Sequence record: NC_052659.1
Reading direction: 5' to 3' (one strand)
Length of the DNA stretch: 64,000 bases
Origin: Escherichia phage nieznany
The notes beneath the pieces are model-generated. The model was not told where the DNA came from. It saw nothing but the letters and a program-made list of their open reading frames with translations, and did not search any database. Within the stretch, counting starts at the first letter, position 1. Each line of letters begins with the position of its first letter. Of the stretch, positions 7,500 through 44,267 are shown piece by piece. Both the position numbers and the translations under genes were made by a program.

Positions 7500-8378
7500 A
7501 TGTTTGTAAAATCTTTTAAATCCGCTCTGCCTATGGTTGTTGGTGACAATGCTTCTGTAGCATCCCTTAACAGCATTACAGATATTCCTCTGGAATTTGT
7601 AACAGCAGAAGGCTCCCAGTCACACACTATCGGTCTTGTTCGTTTCGAAGATGACTCTAAATTTGTAAAAGAGTTTTCAGATCTTGAACTGCTTAATGTA
7701 GGTCAATCTGTGAAGAAGGTAGATAAAAAGAAAGTTAAACGTATTCTGAATGAACGGCTAGAAGAAATGCGTCAGGACATGGAGAGCGAAGGTAAAGAGT
7801 TTTATGTCGATAAAGAAGTAGTCAAAGCAATGAAGGAAGATATTGAATTTGCACTATTGCCTGAAACAGAACCTGAAGATTTCTTTAACTATGTTGTCTT
7901 GGATAAAACTACGAATCTTCTTTATGTTCTTAATGGAAGTAAAAAGGTTGCAGAAGAGATTACTTCTTTCCTCCGTTCCGTTCTGGGGACTTTCCCTTCG
8001 GTAGGTTTTAGTGTGCATGAAGAAGCTATTGTAAAAGGTTTTGGTGAATTGCTGGAGAATCACGAAGCAGATCGTATTACTCTCGGAAATTATATCAAAA
8101 TGGAGGATAGCGAGGGCGTTGTTGTTTGGAGTAAAGAATCCCTATACGAGTCTAAAGCTGTCGAACTAAAAGAAGATGGTAAAGATGTTGTTGCAATCGG
8201 TCTTGAATATGACGGTGTTGTAGATTTCGTAGTGGATAAAGAGTTTAAACTTTCTAAACTACGTTTTCCGAAATATTTTGCAGACGAAGAAGGCAGTATT
8301 GAAGCTTCAGTCCTTCTGTGCTTCAATGAGATTCGAGGTCTGATGGAAGATTTAACCAAAGCAACAATCCTTAAATAA
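7500..8378 (+). CDS. hypothetical acidic protein
   Basis: 292 aa ORF, GGAGGA RBS. Confidence 0.5.
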   Translation: MFVKSFKSALPMVVGDNASVASLNSITDIPLEFVTAEGSQSHTIGLVRFEDDSKFVKEFSDLELLNVGQSVKKVDKKKVKRILNERLEEMRQDMESEGKEFYVDKEVVKAMKEDIEFALLPETEPEDFFNYVVLDKTTNLLYVLNGSKKVAEEITSFLRSVLGTFPSVGFSVHEEAIVKGFGELLENHEADRITLGNYIKMEDSEGVVVWSKESLYESKAVELKEDGKDVVAIGLEYDGVVDFVVDKEFKLSKLRFPKYFADEEGSIEASVLLCFNEIRGLMEDLTKATILK

Positions 8379-8380
8379 GT

Positions 8381-8440
8381 TCTTGACTTGCGGGATTAGT
8401 TATGATATTATGCCTACCTACTTAATGAGGTAGGCTTTTT
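8381..8440 (+). promoter_or_regulatory. sigma70-like promoter (TTGACT-17-TATTAT) followed by stem-loop GCCTACCT..AGGTAGGC + T-tract
   Basis: Seen in sequence; same promoter plus stem-loop architecture as the minus-strand cassettes at 50-57 kb. Confidence 0.45.
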
Positions 8441-8450
8441 AGGAGGCGTT

Positions 8451-8660
8451 ATGAAAAAGATTCTGACAGTCGTTCTTTTAGCTTTTAGTTTCACAGTAGC
8501 AGCAGGTCAAATTACTTTAATCTTGTCTGATTCTGAAGTTAATGGCAATACAAAATATTGCTACTATTCTAACGCTAACCAAGATGAAGTTATAGCAATC
8601 CCGAAAAGTCGTCAATGTCCGTATACTAAAACATTCTCAACAGAGGATGACGATGAATAA
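8451..8660 (+). CDS. small secreted protein (signal peptide)
   Basis: N-terminal MKKILTVVLLAFSFTVAAG hydrophobic signal; 69 aa. Confidence 0.45.
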   Translation: MKKILTVVLLAFSFTVAAGQITLILSDSEVNGNTKYCYYSNANQDEVIAIPKSRQCPYTKTFSTEDDDE

Positions 8661-8672
8661 TTAGGGGGAAAT

Positions 8673-9791
8673 ATTAGCGGTTATATTTTAATTAAACCTG
8701 AAGATCTTCATTTATATGTCAACGAAGAAACAATAGCTGCAATTGATTATGATCAGATCGCTTTCCAAGCAGCGTCTGCATTAGAGAAAAGAACAATCAT
8801 TGCGAAGCACATCCCTTCAGGTGCTCAAAAGGAATTTAAAAATAAGACAGAGTTTTGGGGTAAAAGCAAGACTAAAATTGGAGGTTGGCTAGGAGATACA
8901 AATGCAGAAAGAGCCTCCAAAAACAAACGTCCCTTCACAAAGGAAGAGTTCGAAATCATTGATAAGCAATACCCGCCAGAAGATATCGGACACACCTTCC
9001 AAGCAGCTAAAACAAAAGTCTTAGGTATTCTAAAACATCTACGTTTAGAAAAATATTGCGGAGTTATTGGCGTAGGAAAAACTTTCAGACACGCCTTCAA
9101 AATGCCTGTAGAATATAAATCTGAACGATTAGATATCAAACCACTTCAGCTTTCAGAAACCAAAGATTATCTTGTGGAGTTCCACAATGGTGATGTTGTT
9201 ACTGTAATAGAAGCTGATGATGAGTTAGAGAAGTATGGTTTCCAAGGTTATAAAGATTATAAAAGGACGGGTAAATTTTCTTATATCGTAGTATCTATAG
9301 ATAAAGATAGTTTACATACTCCTAGTATCCTTTTTAATTTCTACAAAGAGGATGGAGTATTTAAAAATCCAGATATAATTCTTATTGACGAGTCTATTGG
9401 CGATATATGGATCGTAGATAAAGGTAAAAAGAAAGAAGTTAAAGGTTGGGGCAGTTACTGGTTAGCATATCAGATGCTAATGGGAGATAAAACAGATAGT
9501 ATCCGACCTTATCAAGATTTTGATATTAAGTTCGGAGATATTACTTGTTTTAATCTTCTTTCAGCTTGTAAAACTCAAGCAGAACTTTTCCAAACAGTTA
9601 AAGATACTTACTACTCATGGTTCCCAGAGGGTGTTAATTTTACTTCTTGGGATGGAGAAGAAGTCCATATGACAACAGATGAATGGATAGAAACAATTTT
9701 CCAGTTGGTATACATGAAACGCTGGGATAATGACGATACAACATTTGAGAGTATGCTTCAGTCATACATCTCACAACAGGAGGCAGAGTGA
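8673..9791 (+). CDS. rnh: RNase H / 5'-3' exonuclease (FEN family, T4 rnh-like); start codon uncertain (no in-frame ATG/GTG/TTG between 8661 and 9101)
   Basis: IAAIDYDQIAF, IEADDEL, VVSIDKD, LMGDKTDSI match the FEN/T4 RNase H motifs recalled from memory; N-terminal catalytic region lies upstream of the first ATG (9102); ATT at 8673 after GGGGG is a candidate start. Confidence 0.55.
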   Translation: MSGYILIKPEDLHLYVNEETIAAIDYDQIAFQAASALEKRTIIAKHIPSGAQKEFKNKTEFWGKSKTKIGGWLGDTNAERASKNKRPFTKEEFEIIDKQYPPEDIGHTFQAAKTKVLGILKHLRLEKYCGVIGVGKTFRHAFKMPVEYKSERLDIKPLQLSETKDYLVEFHNGDVVTVIEADDELEKYGFQGYKDYKRTGKFSYIVVSIDKDSLHTPSILFNFYKEDGVFKNPDIILIDESIGDIWIVDKGKKKEVKGWGSYWLAYQMLMGDKTDSIRPYQDFDIKFGDITCFNLLSACKTQAELFQTVKDTYYSWFPEGVNFTSWDGEEVHMTTDEWIETIFQLVYMKRWDNDDTTFESMLQSYISQQEAE

Positions 9792-12234: not shown

Positions 12235-12843
12235 ATGCAGATAGTATGTGATTGGGATTTAGTTGTGGCTCCATTAGATGTTGCTTGGTTAGAATGGTTG
12301 AATAAGATTAGTGGACTTGGTGTTAAGATAGACACATTCACAAAAAATGCAGACTATGATCTTACCAACTACTTTCCTGGTTTCAGGGAGGAGTTCAATA
12401 TAGATCCTTACGGATTTCTGGATAATCCTCATCTCTATGATACAATGGGTTTTGTTCCAGGTATGCCAGATTTCTTAAAGTATGTTTCAAGGAAAGGTAG
12501 CAATCTTTTGATCGCAAGTGTGACAAAAGGTGGTCACTTAAGTTCTAAACATAAGCATGTTTTAAGAACATTAGATACGATTGATTTTAGCAAAGGATCT
12601 GGTAACGGCTTTTTTGCTACGAAAGAAAAATACTTATTGCCTTGTGATATAGCAATAGATGACAGGGCTGATAACCTACTATATTTTCCAGATGAAGTGG
12701 TTAAAATATATTTTAATACGCCTTATAAAGATAACCATCTAGAAGAACTAAAGAAAAAACCAAATGTTGTGATCACAGGTTTAGAAGATCAGTGGCTAAC
12801 ATGTTTGGATGTTTTTAACACTTTGAACAATTTTAAAAACTAA
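12235..12843 (+). CDS. HAD-family 5'(3')-deoxyribonucleotidase-like protein
   Basis: N-terminal CDWDLVV (DxD) and IAIDDRADN resembling NT5C-type nucleotidases. Confidence 0.4.
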   Translation: MQIVCDWDLVVAPLDVAWLEWLNKISGLGVKIDTFTKNADYDLTNYFPGFREEFNIDPYGFLDNPHLYDTMGFVPGMPDFLKYVSRKGSNLLIASVTKGGHLSSKHKHVLRTLDTIDFSKGSGNGFFATKEKYLLPCDIAIDDRADNLLYFPDEVVKIYFNTPYKDNHLEELKKKPNVVITGLEDQWLTCLDVFNTLNNFKN

Positions 12844-17545: not shown

Positions 17546-17567
17546 AGGGGCTTCGGCCCCCTTTTTT
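17546..17567 (+). terminator. UUCG-tetraloop hairpin GGGGCTTCGGCCCC + T6
   Basis: Seen in sequence. Confidence 0.55.
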
Positions 17568-19510: not shown

Positions 19511-20503
19511 ATGCGCTATCTGGTAACAGGTGGTCTTGGTTTTATTGGGAGCGCCGTGGTGCGCTCTCTTTGTCAAGATCCTAATAACGAAGTTTTTGTC
19601 GTTGATAAGATGGGCTATGCAGCAGATATTGAGAATGTAGGCGATATCACTCACGTTAAACTAAGCATGACAGATTTGGCAAACGAAACCCAGGTCAAAA
19701 GTTTAGTAGTAGAGTGCAATCCTGACTTCATCATTCACTTAGCGGCAGAAAGTCATGTGGATAATTCTATCAAGAATCCACGAGTTTTCATCGACTCCAA
19801 TATTATCGGTACATACAATTTATTGGAAGCTGCAAGGCTCCTCCCAAAAAATAAACTGAAGATGTTCGTACACGTCTCCACAGACGAAGTGTACGGCGAT
19901 ATGGCAGACTCTGGCGTTCCCTTTACCGAAGAGACAGCTTATGCCCCTTCAAGCCCGTACAGTGCGTCTAAGGCAGCATCTGACCATCTTGTGAAAGCTT
20001 GGCACCGCACCTACGATTTGCCTGTTGTGATAACCAACTGCTCCAATAACTTTGGGCCTTATCAACATCCAGAAAAGCTGATCCCAAAAATCATCACAAG
20101 TATCTTGACGAATAAAGAGATTCCGGTGTATGGTAAAGGCGACCAGGTGCGAGACTGGCTTTTTGTTGAGGATCATGCGCGAGCTATTCTTCAAGTGGCA
20201 ACAGGTGGAGAACCAGGTCAAACGTATAATGTTGGAACACGTAATCCCAAAACCAATATGGAGATCATCTATATGGTTTGTGACTATATGGATACTGTAC
20301 ATCCAGAAGCAGTAACCTACCCTTCTTCCAACTTGATAACTTTTGTTGAAGATCGTAAAGGACATGACTTGCGTTATGAAATCAATCCTTCTAAGATAGA
20401 GTCTGAACTGGGCTGGAGTGCAAACTCTACATTTGAACAAGATCTCTACTCAACGATTGAATGGTACTTAAACAACCCTCAATGGTGGAGTGAGAAAATT
20501 TAA
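19511..20503 (+). CDS. rmlB: dTDP-glucose 4,6-dehydratase (RmlB)
   Basis: N-terminal [11 protein letters not shown] Rossmann motif; SDR-type dehydratase; first gene of rml cluster. Confidence 0.85.
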
Positions 20504-20511
20504 GGAGGGTT

Positions 20512-21390
20512 ATGAAAGGTATTATTTTGGCGGGAGGAAGTGGAACCCGCCTTCATCCGGTAACACGCAGTGTGAGCAAGCAATTGCTCCCTGTGTATGA
20601 CAAACCCATGATCTACTACCCTTTATCGGTATTGATGTTGGCTGACATTAAGGATATTTTAATCATCACCACACCAGGTGATCAGGAAGACTTTGAGTAT
20701 CTTCTCGGAGATGGGTCTATGTTTGGGATAAAACTCACTTACGCAATCCAATCCGAGCCACGAGGTCTTGCGGAAGCTTTCATCATAGGTAAAGATTTTA
20801 TCGGAGAAGACTCTGTTGCTCTTATTTTAGGTGACAACCTATTCTTCGGACAAAGCTTTGGTAAACTACTGATTAACGCCAGTGAGATGGTAGATGTTTG
20901 GGGAGGAGCTTGTATTTTCGGGTATTTGGTGAAAGATCCTGAACGATTCGGTGTGGTTGAATTTGGGAGTAATCGTCAAGCTATTTCTATTGAAGAGAAA
21001 CCTGAAAATCCTAAATCAGATTATGCTGTCACAGGTTTGTATTTCTATGATAACTCTGTTATTCAACGTGCATTAGAAGTAACCCCTTCCGCGCGTGGAG
21101 AACTGGAGATCACTGATATCAATCGCAGCTACCTAGAAGACAGGAAGTTACAAGTGGAAGTTCTCGGACGAGGATTTACTTGGCTTGACACAGGAACACA
21201 CGCCAGTCTGATGGAAGCTGGTCAATTCGTGCAGACTATTGAGAACTGTCAAGGATTGAAGATTGCGTGCCTGGAAGAAATTGCTTTCAAAAAAGGGTGG
21301 ATTTCTTTAGAGACTTTGGTGTATCATGGAAACTCACTGAAGAAAACAGAGTACGGGCAATACCTACTCAAATTAGCGGAGAGAAAATGA
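20512..21390 (+). CDS. rmlA: glucose-1-phosphate thymidylyltransferase (RmlA)
   Basis: N-terminal [18 protein letters not shown], near-identical to the RmlA signature. Confidence 0.9.
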
Positions 21391-21953
21391 AAGTAGAAAA
21401 AACAAAAATTGAAGGTGCGGTAATTATCAAACCAGACGTTTATAAAGATGATCGTGGTTTCTTTCTAGAAACATATAATGAACAAAAATACGAAGATATT
21501 ATTGGTAGACAAACTTTCGTTCAAGATAACATGTCTAAATCAAACTTCGGTGTTTTGCGAGGAATGCACTTTCAAACAAATAACCCGCAAGGTAAGCTAG
21601 TTCGTTGTGTAAGTGGGGAAGTATTGGATTTCGCTGTAGATTTACGTAAAGATAGTCCAACTTACGGTGCTTGGGACGGTGTTGTTCTTCGTGCACGACA
21701 CCATACGCAGTTTTGGCTTCCGCCTGGTTTGGCTCATGGTTTTATAGTTTTGAGTATGGATGCTATCTTTGAATACAAATGCACAACTCCATACGACCCT
21801 TCTAGTGAACAAAGTTTACGTTGGGATGATCCTGATATAGGGATCGATTGGGGCTTCGATATGATTTTTGACGAAGGTTTTAAACCTATTCTATCAACAA
21901 AAGATGCAATGGCTAAATCTTTTCAACAGTTACGTAGCGAGGGTGTATGCTAA
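21387..21953 (+). CDS. rmlC: dTDP-4-dehydrorhamnose 3,5-epimerase (RmlC)
   Basis: ATGA overlap with rmlA; cupin-type epimerase motifs [14 protein letters not shown]. Confidence 0.8.
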
Positions 21954-22789
21954 CATATCTGGTATTGGGCGGTAATGGACAACTGGGACAAGCTTTACGT
22001 AAAGTGGCTCCTTCAAATGTATCTTTAATTTATCCTAAAGAACGTGTAGATATTACAAATTTTGAAGCTGTGCGAAACGCTATTATTGAAGATTATGTAG
22101 ATGGTGTTATTAATTGCGCCGCTTATACGGCTGTAGATAAAGCAGAACATGATTTTGCTACTGCTTTGGCTGTTAATGCGTATGGACCTGCAAATATTGC
22201 GGCAGTGTGCAGCAAACTTAAAATTGATTTTGTGCATATTTCTACAGACTATATTTTTAATTATTCTCATCCTATTTTTGAAGATACTACACCTAACCCA
22301 ATAAACAATTATGGGTATACGAAAGAACTTGGTGAAAAAATGGTGCGAGGAGTTAACCCAAATGCATATATTATTCGAACAGCCTCGGTATATAGCGAAT
22401 TTGGAAATAACTTTCTAAAAACCATGTTGTCTCGCTATAATGATGGACAACGTGATTTTATTATTGTTGCTGATCAGTTCTCTTGTCCAACATATGCTCC
22501 AGATTTAGCAGAAGCTATTTTTGAAGTATTAAAAACAGGTTGGTCAAGGTCTATTAAGACTTACCATTTTGCAGGAAGCCATCTTATTTCTTGGGCGGAG
22601 TTTGCGGAAAAGATCTTGACACAGATGCCAGAACCTGTTAAGATATCGGCGGTATCAGCTTCAACCTATAATGCTCCAGCAGCACGTCCGGTGAAGTCAC
22701 AACTAGTAACCAGTCACTATCTTACAAAATCAGATTTAAATAAAGGTATTGAACAGTCTTTAGCAGTATTACTTAATAAGGAGAGGTAA
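21947..22789 (+). CDS. rmlD: dTDP-4-dehydrorhamnose reductase (RmlD)
   Basis: N-terminal LVLGGNGQLG; completes the four-gene rml cluster. Confidence 0.8.
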   Translation: MLTYLVLGGNGQLGQALRKVAPSNVSLIYPKERVDITNFEAVRNAIIEDYVDGVINCAAYTAVDKAEHDFATALAVNAYGPANIAAVCSKLKIDFVHISTDYIFNYSHPIFEDTTPNPINNYGYTKELGEKMVRGVNPNAYIIRTASVYSEFGNNFLKTMLSRYNDGQRDFIIVADQFSCPTYAPDLAEAIFEVLKTGWSRSIKTYHFAGSHLISWAEFAEKILTQMPEPVKISAVSASTYNAPAARPVKSQLVTSHYLTKSDLNKGIEQSLAVLLNKER

Positions 22790-25781: not shown

Positions 25782-26216
25782 ATGTTACAAGTTCCTGCTA
25801 AGTTTGTTGAAGGCGCTATCCACTCTTACCGTCAAACATGTAAGAGGGCAAGAAACTGTTTAGATGGTCTGGTGGCAAAAACCTATACTGTTGAAAAGAA
25901 AAAACGTTGGTTTGGCAAAGATGTTTACGAAGTTAATATTTTTGGTGAACATAAACTAAACCACGATACTCCTGAAAACATGTTAGAAATATTTCTAAGA
26001 GATGACAAAATATCTCCTATGGATTACCAACTTTTAAAATTTTATGATTCTTCTTTAGCTATTGATAAGTTTGTTGAAGATATTCTGTCTAGAAAAACAG
26101 ATAAAAACACTTATCCTCTAGAGGCTGATCAAATAGGATTATTAAACGAGATTTCATCCTTTAAAGAGTTGGATAATATTACAAAAGAGGAGATTTTAGA
26201 TGGCATTAGATTATGA
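25782..26216 (+). CDS. hypothetical protein
   Basis: 144 aa ORF. Confidence 0.45.
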   Translation: MLQVPAKFVEGAIHSYRQTCKRARNCLDGLVAKTYTVEKKKRWFGKDVYEVNIFGEHKLNHDTPENMLEIFLRDDKISPMDYQLLKFYDSSLAIDKFVEDILSRKTDKNTYPLEADQIGLLNEISSFKELDNITKEEILDGIRL

Positions 26217-26709
26217 TCGCCCAACGAGCGATTATTATCCGACACCGCAAAAAGCAATCAACAGTTTGTTTAGTGTTATAGATTTCAAAAATCTAAAGGA
26301 AGAAGGTTGGGTTTTTGCAGAACCTTGTAGAGGTGAAGCTGAAGCGATTTATCGCCATTTTCCTGAAGGTTCAGAATATTGTGAACTTGAAGAAGGTAAA
26401 GATTATTTTAGTCATGAATGGGAAAATCGTCCCGACATTATAATCACAAATCCTCCATTCAAGTTAGCAATGGAGTTCTTGGAAAAGAGCTTAAAAGAGG
26501 CGGATGTTTGTATTTATCTTCTTCGGTTGGGCTTCTTGGAGTCAAAGAAACGACGAGAGTTCCATCAAAAGAATCCACCAACAAACCTTATAGTCCTTTC
26601 AGAACGGCCTTCGTTTGTTGCAGGTGGAACAGATAAGACAGCATACGCTTGGTATGTATACGACCCAAAGAATCGTTTGGGCCTCTCTCAACCATTTTAT
26701 TTTGTTTAA
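26200..26709 (+). CDS. phage Dam-like N6-adenine DNA methyltransferase (small form)
   Basis: IITNPPF motif IV; size about 170 aa typical of small phage Dam family. Confidence 0.5.
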   Translation: MALDYDRPTSDYYPTPQKAINSLFSVIDFKNLKEEGWVFAEPCRGEAEAIYRHFPEGSEYCELEEGKDYFSHEWENRPDIIITNPPFKLAMEFLEKSLKEADVCIYLLRLGFLESKKRREFHQKNPPTNLIVLSERPSFVAGGTDKTAYAWYVYDPKNRLGLSQPFYFV

Positions 26710-32739: not shown

Positions 32740-33135
32740 ATGTGTGGATATCTTTCAGAAAGTTATTTCAAAGTGACGCATGAGGATTTAGAAAAAGCAC
32801 GATTGAAATTGACAGCTATTATTGAATACTCTAATACTGTTGATCACAGATTAAAGACTACTAAAGTATCTGTTCCTTGTTGGTTAGGTTTACGGCATAA
32901 AACAATGTCTCAACATGATCATGTTGTTCGAGAGATGCATGGTTGGTGTTGGTTTCACGATGTGGCTTTGCATTTTGGTTATATTACAGAAGAAGAACAT
33001 AGATTCTGTGAACTAACGTATCGTATTCCAACCCTTCACGATCTAGATTTGTGGAAGAAAGCAAACGAGATTTTTCTTACAGAAAGTGATTGGCGTAAAG
33101 TTATGGCTTGTCTTGAATGGAGGGGTAATGAGTAA
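32740..33135 (+). CDS. hypothetical protein
   Basis: GAAGGAGG then ATG 32740. Confidence 0.4.
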   Translation: MCGYLSESYFKVTHEDLEKARLKLTAIIEYSNTVDHRLKTTKVSVPCWLGLRHKTMSQHDHVVREMHGWCWFHDVALHFGYITEEEHRFCELTYRIPTLHDLDLWKKANEIFLTESDWRKVMACLEWRGNE

Positions 33136-33811
33136 AACAGTTTTGTCTATGTTTGACGGATCTGGGATCATGGTGTTACGTTATGCTGAAGCAGGTCACA
33201 AGTGTTTTTGTGTAAACGCTGATGAAGGGGACCACGGTAAATACGAGGTTAGGATGGAGCACCCAAACATAACCTATGTGAATGCTTGGATAGATTCTAC
33301 ATTCAACCCTGAAGATCATGGAATACCTAAACCCGATATTATTTTTGGATTTCCACCTTGCACTATGTTAGCAGGTAGTGGTAGCAAACACGAACGCAGC
33401 ACAGAGGAATTAGATGAAGCTTTAGCTAATATTCGTGTAGTGGAAGCTTTGGGTAACAAATACAATGTTCCTTGGATGATTGAGAACCCAGTAGGTAAAC
33501 TTTCAACCTTATGGCGTAAACCCGATTTTTACTTTGATCCTTATGAGTATGGTGGGTATTTGTTTGAAGAGGAAGGAAGCTTTCATCCTAAAATGCCTAC
33601 CCGCGATGGGTATACAAAGAAAACTTGTATTTGGCACGGGAATGGTTTTGTTCAACCAGTGAAGAAACCAGTAGATCATATAGGCTGCTTCTGGGGTTGG
33701 AAAAGCTTAGGCGGAGCTAGTGCAAAAACAAAACAACTTAGATCACTAACCGCACGTGGTTTTGCTCGTGCAGTGTTTTTGTCTAACAATCTTCTAGATA
33801 AGGAGAAATAA
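33128..33811 (+). CDS. minimal C5-cytosine methyltransferase-like protein (catalytic core motifs, no obvious target-recognition domain)
   Basis: Motif I FDGSG, motif IV GFPPC, motif VI ENP(V)G in canonical order within about 130 aa; total only about 227 aa. Confidence 0.45.
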   Translation: MSKTVLSMFDGSGIMVLRYAEAGHKCFCVNADEGDHGKYEVRMEHPNITYVNAWIDSTFNPEDHGIPKPDIIFGFPPCTMLAGSGSKHERSTEELDEALANIRVVEALGNKYNVPWMIENPVGKLSTLWRKPDFYFDPYEYGGYLFEEEGSFHPKMPTRDGYTKKTCIWHGNGFVQPVKKPVDHIGCFWGWKSLGGASAKTKQLRSLTARGFARAVFLSNNLLDKEK

Positions 33812-34522: not shown

Positions 34523-34996
34523 ATGTTTCAAGTAAATGTCAATGTGCATAATAGTTACTCTGATTGTGAGACGTGTGGCTATAATTCATCTAATGTTGTT
34601 CGTATTAGTGGCGATTTAGGAGAAGCTTCTTTTGGAGAAGAAGCAAGTTGCTTTAGTGGTATGGATGCAGAATGGAACGATATTGCACATTGGTTGGTGA
34701 GCAAACTAAAAGAAAAAGAGAAACCATTTCCTACTCTGCTTGATCGTTCTCTTGTAGAAGATGCAGGTAAAGCATATGCAGACTATGCGTATGCAGACGG
34801 GAAATATTTGGAAGATGATAAGGCTAACCATTTGCTTTATGTTTACTATGAAGCTGAATCTGCCTACGATAATTATTATAGCATGTCTAACATCCTACGT
34901 CTGTTTGCAGAGTTTGATATTTATTTCGAAGTAGAATTTTCAGAAGATGATACTTACGAATATGATTCTTATGATCCATTTGAGGAGGACGAATAA
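34523..34996 (+). CDS. hypothetical highly acidic protein
   Basis: 157 aa ORF, D/E/Y-rich C-terminus. Confidence 0.45.
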   Translation: MFQVNVNVHNSYSDCETCGYNSSNVVRISGDLGEASFGEEASCFSGMDAEWNDIAHWLVSKLKEKEKPFPTLLDRSLVEDAGKAYADYAYADGKYLEDDKANHLLYVYYEAESAYDNYYSMSNILRLFAEFDIYFEVEFSEDDTYEYDSYDPFEEDE

Positions 34997-35796
34997 TGCC
35001 AAGACGTGTATATTTTATTAGTGGTGCGGGACTAAGTGCTGACAGCGGAATCCAAACATTTCGCACAGAAACAGATTCTGGAAAGGCATTATGGGATGAA
35101 TACGATTTAACAGAAGTCTGTGACATTTTCAACTTCCGTGACGGTTATCAGCAAGAACAGGGTATTCCTGATGCTATGGGTGGCTTAGATGTGGAAGGAT
35201 ATAACCTCTACCGTAAAACTCACGACTTCTACAATAAACGTCGCGTGGAATTAGAGAAAGTTGACCCGAATCCAGCACATCTTCAGATTGGAGAATGGTT
35301 CGAAAAATACGGTGCAGAAAGGATTATTAACATTACTACTAACGTTGACGATCTATTAGAACGCGCTGGAATCGATAGAGAAGAAATATTGCACGTTCAT
35401 GGTTTCTTGCCAGAAGTTGTTGTTGATAACAAAATTATCAAAGATGTGGGTTACGCAGCTATTGATGTAGACGATTACAAATATGTGAAGCCTAATGTGG
35501 TGTTTTTTGGTGAGAATGCACCACTCTACACAGACATGTATCACAAACTGGATCAACTAACATCACAAGATATGGTTATCGTTGTAGGCTGCTCTAACCA
35601 AGTAATCAACTTCAACTGGGAACTCTTCCCTGCCCTGAATATTGGGGTTAAGATGGTTGTAGTTAACCCAGGTTTGAATTTTGTAGAACAAACTCTCTAC
35701 GAAGAACGTGGAGTGCTTGTCTACCGAGAGAAAGCAGGAACAGTCTTCAGTGATGAAGGCTTTATCAAAATGGTTGAAGACCATTTAAACAAATAA
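34996..35796 (+). CDS. Sir2 (sirtuin)-family NAD-dependent protein, lacking the zinc-ribbon cysteines
   Basis: GAGLSADSGIQTFR (GAGIS..GIPxFR), TTNVDDLLERAG (TQNID), catalytic HVHG, VVFFGE, VVGCS. Confidence 0.7.
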   Translation: MPRRVYFISGAGLSADSGIQTFRTETDSGKALWDEYDLTEVCDIFNFRDGYQQEQGIPDAMGGLDVEGYNLYRKTHDFYNKRRVELEKVDPNPAHLQIGEWFEKYGAERIINITTNVDDLLERAGIDREEILHVHGFLPEVVVDNKIIKDVGYAAIDVDDYKYVKPNVVFFGENAPLYTDMYHKLDQLTSQDMVIVVGCSNQVINFNWELFPALNIGVKMVVVNPGLNFVEQTLYEERGVLVYREKAGTVFSDEGFIKMVEDHLNK

Positions 35797-36971: not shown

Positions 36972-37134
36972 GCCGTATCTCCTTTTAAAAGGCTGCACCT
37001 ATTGAAGATGCAGCTTTGATAGATTATTTAGATGAGTCTAAAATGTCTTTTACTTTTGCCGTGATAACGTCTTGATATTTGTTAATAAGATAGCCTACAA
37101 CTACACCTACGATAAATGAAACCATTATTTCTCC

Positions 37135-37743
37135 TTACTTAAGTGGTGAGAGAACAATCTCTCGGTTTTTTAAGAACCAAAGCATGTCATCTTGATCATA
37201 ATCTGATCCCTCTGTAGTAGAATTTTTGATAGAATCAAAAAACCAACGAGGTATACCAAAACAACTTCCAGATGACTGCACGTCTTTCTGTGACATTTTA
37301 AATGTGATTGGAAAATCACAATTATCAATCTCTCGAATATCTGCTGAAGATAAGATTGTAACTTCAACCAGTTCGTCGTTAGATGTAGTATCGTTGTCTT
37401 CCTGAATAATGTCAAATGCTTTTTGCACATCTTTTGCATCTAATGTTAAACCTGTGGCTTTCTGAAAAGCCGAAACAAAAATGAGAGCTTCTTCAGAGCA
37501 AGGGGCTTCCAGCAAATGAGCCATAATAGGTGACAAGCAAATGTTAAGATTTTTGTCATACCAACGAACAATCCACACAGGTGTTGATCCGTTTTGTTTG
37601 TCACGAGCCAAAATTGTAACGTGCTGACCCTCTTCTGGTATATGATACAAACCAGAAAAACCAGGGCCTGTAGTAGATTTTTTGACACGTGCTACATGTC
37701 CCACTTCTAAAGGATCTTTACCATCCCAAATCTTCTCTTCCAT
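37135..37743 (-). CDS. hypothetical protein
   Basis: 202 aa ORF. Confidence 0.5.
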   Translation of the reverse strand: MEEKIWDGKDPLEVGHVARVKKSTTGPGFSGLYHIPEEGQHVTILARDKQNGSTPVWIVRWYDKNLNICLSPIMAHLLEAPCSEEALIFVSAFQKATGLTLDAKDVQKAFDIIQEDNDTTSNDELVEVTILSSADIREIDNCDFPITFKMSQKDVQSSGSCFGIPRWFFDSIKNSTTEGSDYDQDDMLWFLKNREIVLSPLK

Positions 37744-37751
37744 ATAACCTC

Positions 37752-38015
37752 CTAAATAACATCTTTGAAATAGTGAATCACTTCAATATTATGATACAAA
37801 GTGCTTCGCTCTTTTGTGTACTCTGTTTTAGTAACAAACACTTTTGCAATACCGTACTTATGTGCTGGTAGGTTTGGATTAGTTTGCATAATTTCTTTCA
37901 CTACGCTTATAGTTTCGTGCTCGGATTCCCAATAAGTGAAGTAACCCTCACTATCAACGATTAAAGACTCGTTTTCAAGATCTACAAAACAGAAAAATAT
38001 TGACGGATGGCTCAT
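37752..38015 (-). CDS. hypothetical protein
   Basis: 87 aa ORF. Confidence 0.4.
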   Translation of the reverse strand: MSHPSIFFCFVDLENESLIVDSEGYFTYWESEHETISVVKEIMQTNPNLPAHKYGIAKVFVTKTEYTKERSTLYHNIEVIHYFKDVI

Positions 38016-38175
38016 TCTTTTTCTTCAACCTTCCTCAAAGCTTTTTGATCGAATATGGCGTGTTGCAATTCCCCGTTTTCATCGAACCAAGTTACTTTAC
38101 AAGATTCACCATAACTTTCTATTACTGTCATTTGTTTGTTTGCACCTTTAAGGCAAACCACATCACCTACTTGCA

Positions 38176-38625
38176 TCATGATTGAGTTCCTTTTTGTTTT
38201 TCAATAGCTGCACGAATTTCTGCTAAAGGTTCTGCTACCAAGTCTTCAACTTCTTGGATTTGTTCATTCATCACATCACGAACCATTTGAATACGCTCTT
38301 CAAGGGAAACAGCAAGTTCATCTGCATAAGCCATATTAAGAACGTGGTAGAAATTTTCTTGTGCACTTAAAGCACCAGATAACAAATAATCCTGATCTTC
38401 CTCTGGTAAAAGCATGTGTTGCTCATATTCAGCAAAAGTGTTTTTGTTAATCTCAAGCAAAGCACCCATCATAACATCATACTGATAATCTTTATGACCA
38501 GGATTGTTTAAAATAATATCTTCAAAGATATTAAGAAGAATCTTAGTAACAAAAGCATTGTTTTCGGCACCTTCCATCTGACGGATTACCGTGATTACTT
38601 CTTTTTCTTTAGCGTTTTGGCTCAT
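38176..38625 (-). CDS. hypothetical protein
   Basis: 149 aa ORF. Confidence 0.45.
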   Translation of the reverse strand: MSQNAKEKEVITVIRQMEGAENNAFVTKILLNIFEDIILNNPGHKDYQYDVMMGALLEINKNTFAEYEQHMLLPEEDQDYLLSGALSAQENFYHVLNMAYADELAVSLEERIQMVRDVMNEQIQEVEDLVAEPLAEIRAAIEKQKGTQS

Positions 38626-38815
38626 AGTGTTTCTCCTCTGATTCTATTTCGATATAGCCTGTGGTTTTGCACGGGTTACACTCGTAAATTTGACCTACAT
38701 CCGCCATAACATATCCTGCACCACCACAATAGGGGCAAGGCATAGGAGGACAAGGTATGGACGTAGTGATTGTTACGACATTATCAATTTCCAACATTTT
38801 CGCCATTATTACCAT
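38609..38815 (-). CDS. small zinc-ribbon protein
   Basis: CPPMPCPYCGG...CNPCK. Confidence 0.35.
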   Translation of the reverse strand: MVIMAKMLEIDNVVTITTSIPCPPMPCPYCGGAGYVMADVGQIYECNPCKTTGYIEIESEEKHYEPKR

Positions 38816-39057
38816 TCCGCTATTAACGTCAAACCAAGTGCATCGTTAAAACGCTCAACATTTGAGTATAGGTATGGAGGGGTTATTTGCTCTAAAATTT
38901 GTGCTGCTTCCACTTGGTGTTCTATGTTTTGAGAAGTTCGGGCATAAACTAAGACACCCATTTTATTCAAAATAAAAACAGAATCAGACCCATCCAGCTT
39001 ATCAACGGCTGCATACATTTTAGTCATATTTTCTCCTGGATTACCATTCAGCAACAA
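38809..39057 (-). CDS. hypothetical protein
   Basis: 82 aa ORF. Confidence 0.4.
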   Translation of the reverse strand: MLLNGNPGENMTKMYAAVDKLDGSDSVFILNKMGVLVYARTSQNIEHQVEAAQILEQITPPYLYSNVERFNDALGLTLIAEW

Positions 39058-39256
39058 GACTAGGATTCATAGCAAAAGCTTTGAAAGTTGTTATGTCATG
39101 ACTAACATTAAAACTAACACCTTTTACTTTCTCTAATATTTGAACTTTCGTCTCTCCGTCCCACGGTAGGATGATAACACCATCTTCTGTGATCAACCAC
39201 CAATGGTTCTCTCCATCTCGTGAATCTTTTGCTTTGTATAGAAAATTGGAACTCAT
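39041..39256 (-). CDS. hypothetical protein
   Basis: 71 aa ORF. Confidence 0.4.
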   Translation of the reverse strand: MSSNFLYKAKDSRDGENHWWLITEDGVIILPWDGETKVQILEKVKGVSFNVSHDITTFKAFAMNPSLVAEW

Positions 39257-39616
39257 TCTTCCTCCTGTTCGGTATTATTCACCTGTGAGACACAATGTAA
39301 CACAAGTTTTGTGAGTTTGTCAAGGATCTAATTACATTCTACAGAAGAAGAGGGTTAATAACTATAGGAATAGTCTTACTATAGGTGCAATACTAGTTAA
39401 GAGTTAGATTGATAGGTAAGACTTATCTTAAACAGATAATTGATAGGTGAGTCACCATTGACTTTTTCAAAAAAGTATGGTACCCTAAACATATGTTTAC
39501 GAGCGATAGCGAGTAGTAGATTTCTATATAATAATGTTTCATGTTACTCACGATAGTGAGGTATGAAACGTAAGTGAAGGTAGATAAACTATGATCATCT
39601 ATCTACCATCTATTAA

Positions 39617-39826
39617 TCAATATAGATCTAATGTTAGACTAACAGTTATCCAACAAACAATAGCAGTCCATATAACAAGTAATGATCTACAAACTACATC
39701 CCATTCGAATACATTGTATGTTAACCATTCTCCCATCACAACACAAGAACCTAACCAACATCCGACAATAACTATAATCCAATAAAAGAATCCTACAGTA
39801 GAGTATACAGCAAAAGCTTTTAACAT
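39617..39826 (-). CDS. small membrane protein
   Basis: GGAGGAAAG then ATG; hydrophobic with Trp-rich TM segments. Confidence 0.4.
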   Translation of the reverse strand: MLKAFAVYSTVGFFYWIIVIVGCWLGSCVVMGEWLTYNVFEWDVVCRSLLVIWTAIVCWITVSLTLDLY

Positions 39827-40053
39827 CTTTCCTCCAGAAGTTGTTCAACAGTTTGACGAGTATGATTGTCCCAGTAAACCTTAGTGAAGTCAAGAGTTCC
39901 TTGTTCGTTTCTCTTAGTTTCGAAGAAGTATCCGCCTTCTCTTTCTACTCTGTCTCTAATGTGCTCTATGAGGTGCTTTTTACAAGATGCTGATAAACAA
40001 TAGTCATACTCCCCACGAAGTAACGCTATAGCTGCAAGTCTGTTATCACCAAC

Positions 40054-40239
40054 TTAAGATATTGTCCAAGAAAGCATACTACCTTCTATACCTAAAGGTG
40101 TTTGTCGAATGGAATATCCACCATGCCGACTGATAGAAATTATGGCAAGTGGTTCTCCTGTTAGAGATCTTCCTAATGCACCTTCTGTTGGACTTCCTTC
40201 AACAATACGTTTGAAAAAAGCTTTGATCTTACCTAACAT
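40054..40239 (-). CDS. hypothetical protein (followed in-frame, after one TAA, by a 77-codon start-less open frame 39823..40053)
   Basis: AGGGGGA then ATG 40239. Confidence 0.4.
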   Translation of the reverse strand: MLGKIKAFFKRIVEGSPTEGALGRSLTGEPLAIISISRHGGYSIRQTPLGIEGSMLSWTIS

Positions 40240-40256
40240 AAGTCCCCCTTAAAAAC

Positions 40257-40391
40257 TTACTTGTTTAAAGTATCTCTTACTTGTTCTGCTTGACGTTTAG
40301 TAATAAAAGTCCCAACCGAAACGTTAAACTCATTGACTACAGAGAACGATCCATCACGGTTCTCACGAATATTAAACAATTTCTTACTCAT
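40257..40391 (-). CDS. small hypothetical protein (44 aa)
   Basis: GGAGGAGG then ATG; manual translation MSKKLFNIREN... Confidence 0.35.
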   Translation of the reverse strand: MSKKLFNIRENRDGSFSVVNEFNVSVGTFITKRQAEQVRDTLNK

Positions 40392-40587
40392 TTCTACCTC
40401 CTCCGATGCTTTGTGCCGTACCATCCCAAGCCATTAGAATATTTGCCAATAGTTCACGAGGCTCTTTAAACCAAACTTCCATTTCATCAAGAATCTCGTC
40501 CGTGTCGTAAGTATAACCTGGAACACCAAGTTCACATTTCTTAAGATAGCTTTCTAACCAGCGGTGATAATTCTTAACCCCATTCAT
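40384..40587 (-). CDS. hypothetical protein
   Basis: 67 aa ORF. Confidence 0.4.
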   Translation of the reverse strand: MNGVKNYHRWLESYLKKCELGVPGYTYDTDEILDEMEVWFKEPRELLANILMAWDGTAQSIGGGRNE

Positions 40588-40912
40588 ACTGTGCTACCTT
40601 TTCTTTTACCCAATCTACACGATCTTTATCATAATGTTGAGTGCCAAGGAAAAGACCATTGTGGAAACTTTCCTCACCGAAAGGATAAATCGGATCTAAA
40701 CCATCTTCTTCAAATAACATTTTTAGTCTCTGTGATGTAGATTTCTTAGTTTCTGAGTTGTAGCTTGTGGTTATAAGCCAATCTTCCAAACAACGACACA
40801 AACCTTGACGAGAATCCCAAGGAAAAACACAATCTCCGACAGGAGCTTGTTCAGCCCATTTCAACCAGCCTTTAAAAAAGTTATACAGTATGTAGTCTTC
40901 AGTGTAATACAT
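40574..40912 (-). CDS. hypothetical protein, member of 3-copy paralog family (GLC..PF..RVxWVKxRV)
   Basis: AAGGAGGAG then ATG 40912; motif RVDWVKEKV. Confidence 0.45.
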   Translation of the reverse strand: MYYTEDYILYNFFKGWLKWAEQAPVGDCVFPWDSRQGLCRCLEDWLITTSYNSETKKSTSQRLKMLFEEDGLDPIYPFGEESFHNGLFLGTQHYDKDRVDWVKEKVAQYEWG

Positions 40913-40963
40913 TATCTCCTCCTTTACGTATACAATAACACCCCGAAGAACGGGGTGCAACTG

Positions 40964-41575
40964 TTATTTAATCTGTTTGAAAATTTCGTTTGGAACGGTA
41001 CCGTTTAAAATACCTTCTACGATCTCCTGTGCAGATGTGTAAGAGAGTCCAAAAGAAGCTACGCCTAAAATTGCCTCCTTCAAAGGATCTGGCAGGGGTT
41101 CAAAATTACCTGCAACAAAGCCACCTGCACAAGCAGCGCCTTCATCATCCCAGAAAACAACTGCTACATCGTTACCATGCGAAGTTGTGCGATGTGCAAT
41201 AACTTCAACTTCGGTGCCTTCTTTAGGAACAGAATAAGAACTGTCCCAAGAATATCTTTCCAAATCAGGAACAAAGATAACCTTTTCACCTACTGGCGGC
41301 AGTTCACAACGATAATACCAAGAATTTTTTTCGTTCATTGTTTTATTTTCCTCCACGTCTTCAAAAGTAACGATCCAATCGTAGCCGTAAGAAAACGGAT
41401 ATTTTAGATCTAAAGAATAAGTTTGACCTAGATCGTCCTCAACAAGAACCATCCTGTCAAAGTTTGCGATGTTAGGATTATGTTTAATGATAGGGTATGT
41501 TTCCCCTACAGTAAATTGTCCCAAATGGTAAAGTTCATCTCTCCAAGTAATTTGGATATGAGTGCATTGAATCAT
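40964..41575 (-). CDS. hypothetical protein
   Basis: 203 aa ORF. Confidence 0.5.
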   Translation of the reverse strand: MIQCTHIQITWRDELYHLGQFTVGETYPIIKHNPNIANFDRMVLVEDDLGQTYSLDLKYPFSYGYDWIVTFEDVEENKTMNEKNSWYYRCELPPVGEKVIFVPDLERYSWDSSYSVPKEGTEVEVIAHRTTSHGNDVAVVFWDDEGAACAGGFVAGNFEPLPDPLKEAILGVASFGLSYTSAQEIVEGILNGTVPNEIFKQIK

Positions 41576-41579
41576 AAAA

Positions 41580-41852
41580 TCACCCCCAAGAAATATTTAT
41601 ATATCTTACAATGTTTGCACTGTCTAAAGCCATGTTTGCACCACACCCACGCTCGCGCCAGTAACTAACAATACCTTCACAGATACTTTCTTGTATCTTC
41701 TTATCACTTGGCATTTCTAGTATAAGACTTGGGTTGTGGATGTTTATGTTATAATATCCTTCCTCTGCGGCTTGAGCTACCAATTTACTTACTTTTTCAA
41801 AGTACGGGGAATTAGTGGCATCTGCCATTGTTTTTAAGGTTTGTCTATCCAT
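41580..41852 (-). CDS. hypothetical protein
   Basis: 90 aa ORF. Confidence 0.4.
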   Translation of the reverse strand: MDRQTLKTMADATNSPYFEKVSKLVAQAAEEGYYNINIHNPSLILEMPSDKKIQESICEGIVSYWRERGCGANMALDSANIVRYINISWG

Positions 41853-42217
41853 TATTCTGCCTCATCATAGAAGAAATCCAACTCTTGTTCCAGTTGTTTA
41901 ACTCGATCCTTAACCCACTGTACACGTTTTTCATTAAACATGCAACGTTTTTCCTTACACTCTTGCTCAAAAGATTTTGCTGTGTTAAATGGGAAAGTTG
42001 TATCTAAGCCAGCGTTTTCAAAACTGGCTAATTGCATACCATAAACAGAATATGCTAAAGAATGATCGGCTCGAAATTCATCACTTATATACATACGTAG
42101 ACCTCGGCATAAGCCAACATCAGCGTAACCACTTTCTCGTGGAAAGAGACGGAGGTGTTCTAACCAATTATTATAGAAATCTAAAAGAATCCTTTTACAC
42201 TTCAAATCAATTGTCAT
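41852..42217 (-). CDS. hypothetical protein, paralog family member (RVQWVKDRV)
   Basis: AAGGAG then ATG 42217. Confidence 0.45.
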   Translation of the reverse strand: MTIDLKCKRILLDFYNNWLEHLRLFPRESGYADVGLCRGLRMYISDEFRADHSLAYSVYGMQLASFENAGLDTTFPFNTAKSFEQECKEKRCMFNEKRVQWVKDRVKQLEQELDFFYDEAE

Positions 42218-42617
42218 AAAAAGTTTCTCCTTCGTCGAACAAGTTGGCAAGATTGTTCACGGCAATCTGCGTGGAAAGAAGACAACTGTTTGCAGACACA
42301 TAAGCACGAGCTATTTTGTAAACATAGGCTTTCGTATTACAATTGTCCAGGATCGGAAGACTTTCGTCGATAGCATCTATAACACTAAACATCACATCTA
42401 AAACTTTAATGGTGAGTGTTGTATTTGTATCTTCGTAACCTTTTTCAATCCGACCTGAATAGAAAGCATAGTCCTCAACAGTTCGTCGTTTAAACTGCCG
42501 CATAAAATCGGAACCATCTGTAGCAGAATTGAACAAATTTTCAAAAAATACGTCCCATCCGGCAAAAAGGGCTGACAGCATGATTAAGTGATCTACAGAT
42601 TCATTTTCTTGTTTCAT
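42207..42617 (-). CDS. hypothetical protein
   Basis: 136 aa ORF. Confidence 0.45.
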   Translation of the reverse strand: MKQENESVDHLIMLSALFAGWDVFFENLFNSATDGSDFMRQFKRRTVEDYAFYSGRIEKGYEDTNTTLTIKVLDVMFSVIDAIDESLPILDNCNTKAYVYKIARAYVSANSCLLSTQIAVNNLANLFDEGETFYDN

Positions 42618-42625
42618 ATCCTCTC

Positions 42626-43303
42626 CTATTTAATGTTAAGTCTGGCACACAAACGAGAAACAGTTTTAGCATCCCATTTACCACCACGTGCTGTTGCTAT
42701 TTTCTTACTATTGAATTTTTCAGCAATAGTTTTGTAAGGTGTATTTAAATCTCTAAGGATCTCCAAGCGTTCACGGAATGTCTCTGCAAAAGCGTCTGCT
42801 TTAACAGAGTTGTATTCCATTTTTCCTTTTCTACGTGCAGCGGCAGTTTTAGGATTAGCACTACCTAATAAAACACCTTTACTTTTTGCTACAGCAAGAC
42901 CCTTTTTAATGCGATCAGCAATGCCTCTAACTTCTTGTTCAGCCAGAACAGATAGAAGTTGTATAACCATTTTATCTGCGTCTGGCATGATGGCTATCTT
43001 AACATCGATCATTTCTAGAAGAGTTGCTACGGAGGCGTTGTTACGACCCAAGCGGTCAACTTTAGCTACCAATAAAGTTGCTCCGGTAGCTTTACACATT
43101 TCAACCGCTTTAACCAGTTCCTTACGTTGCTTCCAATCGCCCTTACCCGAATAGTATTCAGAAAATTGACCAATAACTTCAGCATCAGGCACAGAGTCTA
43201 AGAAGTAACGGATATCGTTCTCTTGGCTCTCCATACCATATTGTGCCTCACCTTTTTTCTGTTTAGAAAGACGACTGTAAACAACAAACTTTTTCATAAC
43301 CAC
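42626..43303 (-). CDS. serine recombinase (resolvase/invertase family) with C-terminal HTH
   Basis: VYSRLSKQKK (catalytic Ser region), VAKVDRLGRN, C-terminal HTH-like KTIAEKFNSKKIATARGG; own TTGACA-17-TAAAGT promoter. Confidence 0.75.
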   Translation of the reverse strand: MVMKKFVVYSRLSKQKKGEAQYGMESQENDIRYFLDSVPDAEVIGQFSEYYSGKGDWKQRKELVKAVEMCKATGATLLVAKVDRLGRNNASVATLLEMIDVKIAIMPDADKMVIQLLSVLAEQEVRGIADRIKKGLAVAKSKGVLLGSANPKTAAARRKGKMEYNSVKADAFAETFRERLEILRDLNTPYKTIAEKFNSKKIATARGGKWDAKTVSRLCARLNIK

Positions 43304-43367
43304 TCCTAAACCATTGCTGTATTCTCACTTTACAAAACGAATAAACACTTGTCAAGGTATTTATTAT

Positions 43368-43904: not shown

Positions 43905-43914
43905 TCTTTTCTCC

Positions 43915-44214: not shown

Positions 44215-44267
44215 ATCTATCTCCTTTGTGGTTAATCTTTATATTTTAAATATTGTACCGTCTTCTA

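Follow-up and report, generated by a model that had tools for sequence, protein, structure and literature searches.

The locus described here raises the question of what a phage might do with activated rhamnose of its own making. In a 64,000-nucleotide stretch of Escherichia phage nieznany (NC_052659.1; hereafter the window, to whose coordinates positions refer unless otherwise stated), the four genes rmlB, rmlA, rmlC and rmlD (19511-22789) encode a predicted pathway to deoxythymidine diphosphate (dTDP)-L-rhamnose and lie among genes of nucleotide metabolism. The genes already bear these names in the records of phAPEC8, tuntematon and phi92 and in dozens of others, and annotations of the cluster are present in about 130 public phage genomes. 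Olsen et al. 2020 (PMC7552041) described the cluster, termed its location among DNA-metabolism genes 'peculiar' and proposed for this phage group a T4-like rhamnosylation of hydroxymethylated nucleotides, while Maffei et al. 2021 (PMC8594841) found the group unprotected from restriction despite its putative dTDP glycosylation machinery. An earlier sequence-only reading of the window, which noticed the four genes and favored a DNA or nucleotide role from their placement, thus repeated published statements in both its observation and its interpretation. What is new in the present analysis is the recognition of an rmlC-rmlD core, of an insertion between nrdB and the glutaredoxin gene grx, of a distant glycosyltransferase cluster that is co-distributed with rml, and of a sub-module of that cluster in temperate phages. 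We propose that a working dTDP-L-rhamnose pathway feeds phage glycosyltransferases that act on an acceptor other than DNA, a reading which, taken as a whole, we hold with slightly more belief than doubt.

The 3279-base rml stretch matches that of Escherichia phage tuntematon (MN850618, Phapecoctavirus, Stephanstirmvirinae) at 100% identity and that of phAPEC8 at 99.8%; of the first 25 kb of the window, 97% of the length aligns with tuntematon, at 99.6% identity, so that the window DNA comes from a phage very closely related to tuntematon. Statements on the genome beyond the window rest on tuntematon and other relatives. The sequence-only reading had named the four products RmlB, RmlA, RmlC and RmlD, at coordinates that proved exact, and had proposed a homology search as the check that might overturn these names; in that search all four came out as Rml enzymes. 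Enzyme calls were made with NCBIfam equivalog hidden Markov models at their curated cut-offs, and Pfam agreed for each protein. RmlB scored 431.2 bits (TIGR01181, cut-off 365.1), RmlA 464.5 bits over residues 2-289 of 292 (TIGR01207, cut-off 360.65) and RmlC 225 bits (TIGR01221, cut-off 155.75); RmlD, at 237.4 bits, passed its cut-off of 224.05 (TIGR01214) by a narrow margin and matched PF04321 at 2.6e-73.

All four proteins align end to end with solved enzymes, far beyond chance. Residues 1-326 of RmlB align with Salmonella RmlB (1g1a, E = 1.5e-110), with the GGxGFIG motif, the TDE triad and YxxxK (YSASK) intact, and RmlA, which retains the GGSGTRL signature, matches 4ho0 (5e-125) and E. coli RffH (1mc3, 2e-118). 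In RmlC (1dzr of Salmonella, 4e-56), the segments RGMHFQ, GKLVRC, EYK and STKD all align, at positions that we take to be the catalytic His, Lys, Tyr and Asp of 1dzr. The nearest solved structures of RmlD are those of the Firmicute enzymes 3sc6 (7e-44) and 1vl0 (about 1e-44), Salmonella RmlD (1kbz) reaching only 6e-29; the motifs STDY (HISTDYIF) and YxxxK (YGYTK) are kept in the alignment with 3sc6. As far as enzymology goes, the cluster very probably constitutes a phage-owned supply of dTDP-L-rhamnose.

The genes are closely packed. The spacer between rmlB and rmlA is 8 nt, with an AAGGAGG site ahead of rmlA; overlaps of 4, 7 and 1 nt follow at rmlA/rmlC, rmlC/rmlD and rmlD/grx, and a purine-rich site precedes every rml start, an arrangement in which translational coupling is plausible. 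The start of rmlC was taken as an ATG within a longer listed GTG open reading frame (ORF) that begins at 21267. A scan for promoters and terminators gave nothing specific to the cluster, with no strong sigma-70-like promoter on the + strand from about 16.4 kb to 22.6 kb of the window and terminator-like matches no commoner than in shuffled sequence; the genes are probably read within a long + strand unit. Because the ratio of nonsynonymous to synonymous substitution (dN/dS) was low against two relatives, ESCO5 and 3A1 (about 98% nucleotide identity), the comparison indicates purifying selection: values were 0.09-0.10 for rmlB, 0.11-0.17 for rmlA, 0.01 for rmlC and, from few differences, 0.05-0.49 for rmlD. 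The GC content at third codon positions (GC3) is phage-like in rmlC and rmlD (0.22-0.26, against a phage background of 0.25-0.33) and richer in rmlB and rmlA (0.39-0.41).

Among the relatives, the two halves of the cluster behave differently. In phi92 (Justusliebigvirus), rmlB-A-C-D occupies the same site, with protein identities of 62, 71, 62 and 54% to the window, and in IMG/VR contigs the order nrdA-nrdB-rmlBACD-grx-lysozyme-phoH holds down to 42% (RmlD) and 54% (RmlB) identity; intact rml ORFs are found in divergent genera too. Phapecoctavirus Mt1B1_P17 and Klebsiella phage KP13-26 carry rmlC-rmlD alone at the rml site. The rmlB gene is missing from both, as well as from the IMG/VR contig of locus L103; among the IMG/VR contigs, one of 149 kb is without rmlB alone; ESCO37 has been described as devoid of rmlA and rmlB (PMC10269720). 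In the phage collection, at 95% identity or more, the RmlC gene was present in 63 records and the RmlA gene in 46, and the whole cluster was covered by 44 of the 69 megablast matches. By contrast, rmlC was found in every relative examined, and rmlD always accompanied it. Because of these rmlC-rmlD-only relatives, together with the order conserved in distant contigs, rmlC-rmlD stands out as the invariant core, and rmlB-rmlA as an ancestral but dispensable part. The Mt1B1_P17 junction falls on a GGAGA common to the ribosome-binding sites of rmlB and rmlC, which fits a microhomology deletion of rmlB-rmlA. Some genomes pair an rmlA of window type (97%) with an rmlC that has diverged to 65% identity, and the two halves have therefore been exchanged independently. 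The cluster as such appears to be a long-standing resident of the Stephanstirmvirinae (phAPEC8-like, phi92-like and related phages).

A dispensable first half can be understood from what the host provides. In all Enterobacterales, RffH and RffG make dTDP-4-keto-6-deoxy-D-glucose for the enterobacterial common antigen (ECA); this intermediate is the ECA branch point (rffGH, wecE), and RmlC and RmlD carry out the sole rhamnose-specific steps. By blastn, 5423 of 5426 complete E. coli genomes match the phage cluster, typically at rffG and the adjacent thymidylyltransferase gene. The matching places number 8043 over all these genomes, with a median of one per genome, and about half of the genomes seem to be without a second, O-antigen-linked rml locus, a figure obtained at 60-80% identity, where some loci may be missed. 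In the mechanism that we propose, RmlA and RmlB would convert glucose-1-phosphate and dTTP into dTDP-4-keto-6-deoxy-D-glucose, and RmlC and RmlD would turn this into dTDP-L-rhamnose. Only rmlC-rmlD would be indispensable; host RffH and RffG could supply the intermediate, and rmlB-rmlA would just boost flux. Because hosts make the 4-keto intermediate while about half of E. coli seem to lack rml, the phage would thereby secure rhamnose whatever the serotype of its host.

The position of the genes had been the chief ground for favoring a DNA or nucleotide role. They do lie nearly, as claimed, directly between nrdAB and glutaredoxin, although four small ORFs part nrdB from rmlB (Table 1). In a sister lineage of PVP-SE1-like phages (genomes of about 146 kb), whose proteins are 62-66% (ThyX), 52-55% (NrdA) and 50-51% (NrdB) identical to those of the window, grx follows nrdB after 36-400 bases without any rml gene, and the phi92 annotation maps NrdB to PVP-SE1 gp139 and glutaredoxin to gp141. 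Because nrdB directly precedes grx in that lineage, the rml genes are a lineage-specific insertion into a pre-existing thyX-nrdAB-grx block and did not co-evolve as part of it. The neighborhood is therefore weak evidence for a nucleotide role, and the inference drawn from it finds no support. The ThyX-like gene is likewise conserved (62-66%) in the PVP-SE1-like phages that have no rml, and is therefore not tied to the sugar pathway.

A more informative partner was found elsewhere in the genome. The observation that no glycosyltransferase is recognizable in the window holds for the window: tblastn with four phage glycosyltransferases gave a best E of 1.2, Pfam scans of 30 window ORFs revealed no glycosyltransferase beyond the Rml families, and none is listed in the part of the tuntematon annotation that matches the window. 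It does not extend to the genome. The search of the remainder that the sequence-only reading had called for, aimed at glycosyltransferases and base hydroxymethylases and made on tuntematon, recovered the former and none of the latter: tuntematon has four consecutive glycosyltransferase genes (gp113-gp116) about 70 kb from rml, downstream of a cluster of Ter-like genes and just upstream of genes for primase/helicase, Dam and DNA polymerase. All four proteins are free of membrane segments, and three of them are acidic (pI 4.9-6.0). Searching their sequences against the PDB gave nothing usable; fold searches with predicted models confirm GT-A and GT-B/GT4 folds and do not discriminate among acceptors.

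Table 1. Coordinates and assignments of the rml genes, the glycosyltransferase cluster and other features mentioned in the text (window positions unless another record is named; aa, amino acids).
Feature	Length	Position	Strand	Assignment or basis
rmlB, dTDP-glucose 4,6-dehydratase	330 aa	19511..20503	+	TIGR01181, 1g1a alignment
rmlA, glucose-1-phosphate thymidylyltransferase	292 aa	20512..21390	+	TIGR01207, 4ho0 alignment
rmlC, dTDP-4-dehydrorhamnose 3,5-epimerase	188 aa	21387..21953	+	TIGR01221, 1dzr alignment
rmlD, dTDP-4-dehydrorhamnose reductase	280 aa	21947..22789	+	TIGR01214, PF04321, 3sc6 alignment
Four glycosyltransferase genes (tuntematon)		48463-51607
gp113 (tuntematon)	187 aa			small GT-A-like, DTD motif; PHROG 14179
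gp114 (tuntematon)	227 aa			GT-A, invariant DDD; model of 99% identical homologue, pLDDT 89.6
gp115 (tuntematon)	315 aa			GT-B/GT4-like, gp116 paralogue; PHROG 7162
gp116 (tuntematon)	314 aa			GT-B/GT4-like; model pLDDT 92.6; best matches BshA, PglA, MshA, GtfC/Gtf3, SdgB
RmlB-like gene (IMGVR_UViG_3300031372_000212, L025)		7952-9016		short-chain dehydrogenase/reductase, 32% identity
Ter-like set (tuntematon)		37066-47140
Four small ORFs between nrdB and rmlB	69, 50, 54, 108 aa	18670-19501
Last of these, 108-aa protein	108 aa	19175-19501	+	PHROG 15453
NT5C-like deoxynucleotidase		12235-12843	+	upstream of the ThyX-like gene
ThyX-like protein	332 aa	12853-13851	+	PF02511, 33 bits
ORF between nrdA and nrdB	218 aa	16883-17539	+	no Pfam match
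Terminator-like hairpin		17547-17560		after the 218-aa ORF
Proteins labelled 'Dcm'/'DNA methyltransferase'		33086-33811; 26200-26709	+; +	PHROG 757 and 799 matches only
Sir2-like protein		34996-35796	+
Serine recombinase		42626-43303	-	Resolvase N-terminal domain, 5e-18
NADAR-domain protein		58395-58937	-
Protein with five CapR-homology repeats	486 aa	59486-60946	-

The glycosyltransferases and the rml genes travel together. At 60% identity or more, the RmlC gene was present in 128 and gp114 in 125 of the 134 phage records that match the region, and genomes of Vequintavirus type have neither rml nor gp114-like genes. Mt1B1_P17, with rmlC-rmlD only, retains an identical gp114, and both clusters are present in the phi92-like phage Bas61 and in a distant 141-kb IMG/VR contig; the four glycosyltransferase genes stand in a row in Bas61 and in IMG/VR relatives as well. 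The module of more distant large phages includes a single GT-B enzyme, and more than 560 IMG/VR contigs bear more distant relatives of the GT-B proteins. Had large phages with such a three-gene module (L025, L026) proved to be without rml, gp116 would have been indicated as the rhamnosyltransferase; the 153-kb contig was missing from our RmlC, RmlD and NrdB pattern scans, which need exact peptide words. At L025, a gene for an RmlB-like short-chain dehydrogenase/reductase lies between gp113-like and gp114-like genes and thus physically links a sugar-nucleotide enzyme to the glycosyltransferase module. Adjoining the tuntematon cluster directly upstream, the Ter-like set (L002/L004) comprises a HAD hydrolase, a ComF-like phosphoribosyltransferase, a Macro domain, TerC, an SprT-like protein, TelA, vWA-TerF and TerD; it is syntenic with the cluster in distant IMG/VR relatives as well (L014, L025).

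Part of the module is found in phages of a quite different kind, namely temperate phages of enterobacteria, where it occupies late or packaging regions. In a Serratia prophage, homologues of gp113, gp114 and gp115 (35-51% identity, the last nearer gp115 than gp116) are grouped between lysis cassette and terminase. The same three-gene module lies between the Q antiterminator and lysis or terminase genes in lambdoid contigs, between terminase and portal in a P22-like contig, and within the span from Q/lysis to terminase/portal in HK97-like temperate phages. At these temperate-phage loci, neither rml genes nor base-hydroxylating enzymes were seen.

Taken together, these observations suggest that dTDP-rhamnose would be consumed by the four soluble phage glycosyltransferases, two small GT-A enzymes and two that are GT-B/GT4-like, and that these would build, on an acceptor other than DNA, a glycan that includes rhamnose. 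That the supply feeds the phage's own glycosyltransferase cluster we regard as fairly probable. The acceptor is quite likely not DNA, as supported by the occurrence of the module in temperate phages, the acidic pI of three of the enzymes and published restriction data. A virion protein or the host surface, which the sequence-only reading had mentioned as further options, is now more likely than DNA. Between these, a phage (virion) protein would be the leading guess, slightly ahead of a host envelope glycolipid, such as the lipopolysaccharide (LPS) core or an undecaprenyl-linked intermediate, as a close second.

If instead the glycosyltransferases were to transfer rhamnose from dTDP-rhamnose to a modified DNA base, as happens with glucose or arabinose in T-even phages, the DNA could evade host nucleases, and several features would fit: the setting of rml among nrdAB, thyX and grx and of the glycosyltransferases beside primase/helicase, Dam and DNA polymerase; the presence in the genome of a ThyX-like protein that is atypical, along with a MazG-like pyrophosphohydrolase and an NT5C-like nucleotidase; and the similarity, albeit weak, of gp114 to PF20691 (TET-associated glycosyltransferase, E = 1e-3) and to PHROG 842 (beta-glucosyl-HMC-alpha-glucosyltransferase, E = 8e-6). 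The R...DDD...ED pattern of gp114 also resembles the DNA GT-A enzymes of a recent preprint (10.1101/2023.12.21.572611), whose DNA GT-B enzymes match BshA and MshA just as gp116 does. However, the PF20691 score of gp114 (19.5 bits) is below the cut-off of 27.5 and covers only residues 32-68, around the DxD region; TET-associated glycosyltransferases rank 44-48 in a viral fold search (BFVD), and no T4 alpha- or beta-glucosyltransferase is among the 50 best PDB matches to the model of gp116. The known DNA-glycosylation pathways build on a ThyA-type hydroxymethylase or on TET with a C5-methyltransferase (preprint 10.1101/2023.12.21.572611). Neither a ThyA-type hydroxymethylase nor a TET/JBP enzyme was found in the whole tuntematon annotation or by Pfam scans of its larger unknown proteins, in which very divergent ones could escape. 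The rml position is that of an insertion, the ThyX-like gene occurs equally in rml-less relatives, and the glycosyltransferase module also occurs in temperate phages whose replication uses ordinary bases. Phages Bas60-62, whose rml and glycosyltransferase clusters are orthologous to those described here, have been called 'exceptionally susceptible' to restriction-modification of types I-III (PMC8594841) and are sensitive to Druantia III and ARMADA II (PMC13463889); ARMADA II reduces Bas61 and Bas62 100- to 100,000-fold, and its authors think that unmodified DNA is recognized (PMC13463889). HincII cuts the DNAs of the ESCO Phapecoctavirus and Justusliebigvirus phages, and indeed digested all ESCO phages but ESCO10, ESCO47 and ESCO58, none of which is among the named isolates of those two genera; libraries of the ESCO phages were prepared with Nextera (PMC10269720). 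We found no nucleoside mass spectrometry for this phage group in the literature. On balance, T-even-like rhamnosylation is improbable, and we give only a slim chance to rhamnose, or a rhamnose oligosaccharide, on a minority of DNA sites through a chemistry needing no known hydroxymethylase or TET. Were it true, such sparse rhamnosylation would have gone unnoticed in the restriction tests made to date, and it would amount to a novel type of DNA modification for which the virus itself encodes a dedicated dTDP-sugar supply. The fold matches to BshA, MshA and TarP, considered as a clue to the acceptor, were rejected since the same matches are reported for genuine DNA glycosyltransferases.

The pathway could also serve without any phage acceptor, if RmlC and RmlD drained dTDP-4-keto-6-deoxyglucose from ECA synthesis or topped up host rhamnosyltransferases of the O-antigen or LPS core, altering the infected cell surface and, for example, limiting superinfection or the loss of progeny on debris. 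The conserved rmlC-rmlD core does act exactly at the ECA branch point, rffG and rffH are present in nearly all E. coli, and relatives of this phage need wecB-derived surface glycans and the LPS core to infect (PMC8594841, PMC11990801). Yet most members have rmlA and rmlB too, which would enlarge rather than drain the pool, and the tight co-distribution with four phage glycosyltransferases would be left unexplained. Many hosts, moreover, are without a functional O-antigen rhamnosyltransferase, as is K-12 with its disrupted wbbL. We consider such host manipulation unlikely, and very unlikely indeed that the cluster is a neutral or decaying passenger, captured from a host O-antigen cluster and contributing nothing to the life cycle of the phage. 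Some natural isolates have lost rmlB-rmlA without obvious harm (PMC10269720 for ESCO37), and the GC3 of these two genes exceeds the phage background. But none of the four ORFs is disrupted, their dN/dS is low, rmlC and rmlD are phage-like in composition, and synteny is kept down to 42-57% protein identity. Identity to the E. coli genes stays within a 60-80% band, over partial coverage, and never rises above it, and the phage order B-A-C-D differs from E. coli rfbB-D-A-C; both argue against a recent capture from the host.

Several points also weigh against the proposal that phage glycosyltransferases transfer the rhamnose to a non-DNA acceptor. The co-distribution of rml and glycosyltransferases lies largely within one clade and is therefore confounded by phylogeny, and the module exists in phages without rml, so that at least some of the four enzymes would use other donors. 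The glycosyltransferase cluster lies outside the window and is attributed to this genome from relatives at least 95% identical. The fold matches are generic (TM 0.4-0.64) and are silent on both donor and acceptor, and the score of RmlD near its cut-off may leave room for a C4-epimeric product, dTDP-6-deoxy-L-talose. As for the virion, the capsid, decoration, tube, sheath and portal proteins have no Ser/Thr-rich tails like those glycosylated in Che8, a weak sign against virion glycosylation, and both clusters stand amid early replication-type genes, not late genes.

The phage can be compared with several known systems. The bacterial RmlABCD sets of Salmonella, E. coli and Pseudomonas belong to the same four families, with the same catalytic motifs and full-length structural alignment; the phage set differs in residing in a virulent myovirus, in its gene order and nucleotide identity (60-80% to E. 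coli), in an RmlD nearer to Firmicute than to enterobacterial RmlD, and in being without an adjacent O-antigen flippase, polymerase or rhamnosyltransferase. With the DNA hypermodification of T-even phages and TET systems it shares glycosyltransferases near replication genes and the weak GT-A resemblance of gp114. Unlike those systems, it has no detected hydroxymethylase, TET or dCTPase-type pathway, its PF20691 match is below threshold and its DNA is restriction-sensitive; moreover, T-even phages use host UDP-glucose, whereas this phage would make its own dTDP-sugar.

Mycobacteriophage Che8 (Cluster F) likewise clusters several soluble glycosyltransferases in a non-structural region, but is not known to encode a sugar-nucleotide pathway. 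By tblastn, gp114 matches glycosyltransferases of Cluster F phages at E of about 1e-8 and 25-27% identity over residues 26-155, the nucleotide-sugar-binding half; hhalign of the gp114 family against Che8 gp108 gave E = 0.076, and gp109 and gp110 were worse (not significant). Capsid glycosylation of Che8 is reported in a passage of PMC11256854 that cites Freeman et al. 2023. In chloroviruses (GDP-fucose and GDP-rhamnose) and mimivirus (UDP-L-rhamnose), virus-encoded pathways and glycosyltransferases serve capsid or fibril glycans (PMC9614988, PMC7019647). These giant viruses offer a parallel in that the virus encodes both an activated 6-deoxyhexose supply and its own glycosyltransferases for host-independent glycosylation, although the phage carrier is dTDP, of bacterial type, the enzymes are unrelated and the host is bacterial. 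Finally, prophage envelope modifiers such as S. aureus TarP and enterobacterial Gtr are phage-borne glycosyltransferases that alter host surface polymers; TarP is among the weak structural matches of gp114, and a GT-A and GT-B pair stands in moron-like positions in the temperate phages. In contrast to these systems, the present phage is virulent, its four proteins are without membrane segments, and there is no flippase or GtrA/B partner.

Some further features of the window deserve mention. The 108-aa protein preceding rmlB contains CSGCGAC and is unassigned in function; it stands always immediately 5' of rml in Phapecoctavirus, phi92 and KP13-26, but no copy of it was seen in the remoter IMG/VR lineage with rmlBACD. 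The 218-aa ORF is absent from tuntematon, and since phi92 has an HNH endonuclease in its place, it is probably a homing-endonuclease insertion. The ThyX-like protein is atypical, with THR replacing RHR of the motif. For the two proteins that public records tentatively call 'Dcm' or 'DNA methyltransferase', Pfam gives no methyltransferase domain, and no dioxygenase gene adjoins them. The NADAR, Sir2-like and CapR-repeat proteins, together with the Macro-domain protein outside the window, suggest a counter-defence related to NAD or ADP-ribose. A serine recombinase is encoded in this virulent myovirus, in a region where phi92 annotates a DNA invertase. The sign of the GC skew flips near 36 kb, where the coding strand goes from + to -, and a second shift in composition near 48.7 kb coincides with the end of the tuntematon record; the window apparently spans the ends of a linear record, and in the region past 48.7 kb it has about 8 kb less sequence than tuntematon.

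In summary, no answer was found in the literature searched as to how a virulent coliphage puts dTDP-rhamnose of its own and four glycosyltransferases to use. The natural rmlC-rmlD-only variants and the dispensable rmlB-rmlA are ready genetic handles on this question, and phAPEC8- and phi92-like phages are widely used therapeutic candidates. Should the acceptor be LPS or ECA, the system would represent a new receptor-masking strategy by a lytic phage. Should it be a virion protein, these phages would have the first glycosylated virions among Gram-negative phages, which would bear on antibody recognition and mucus binding.

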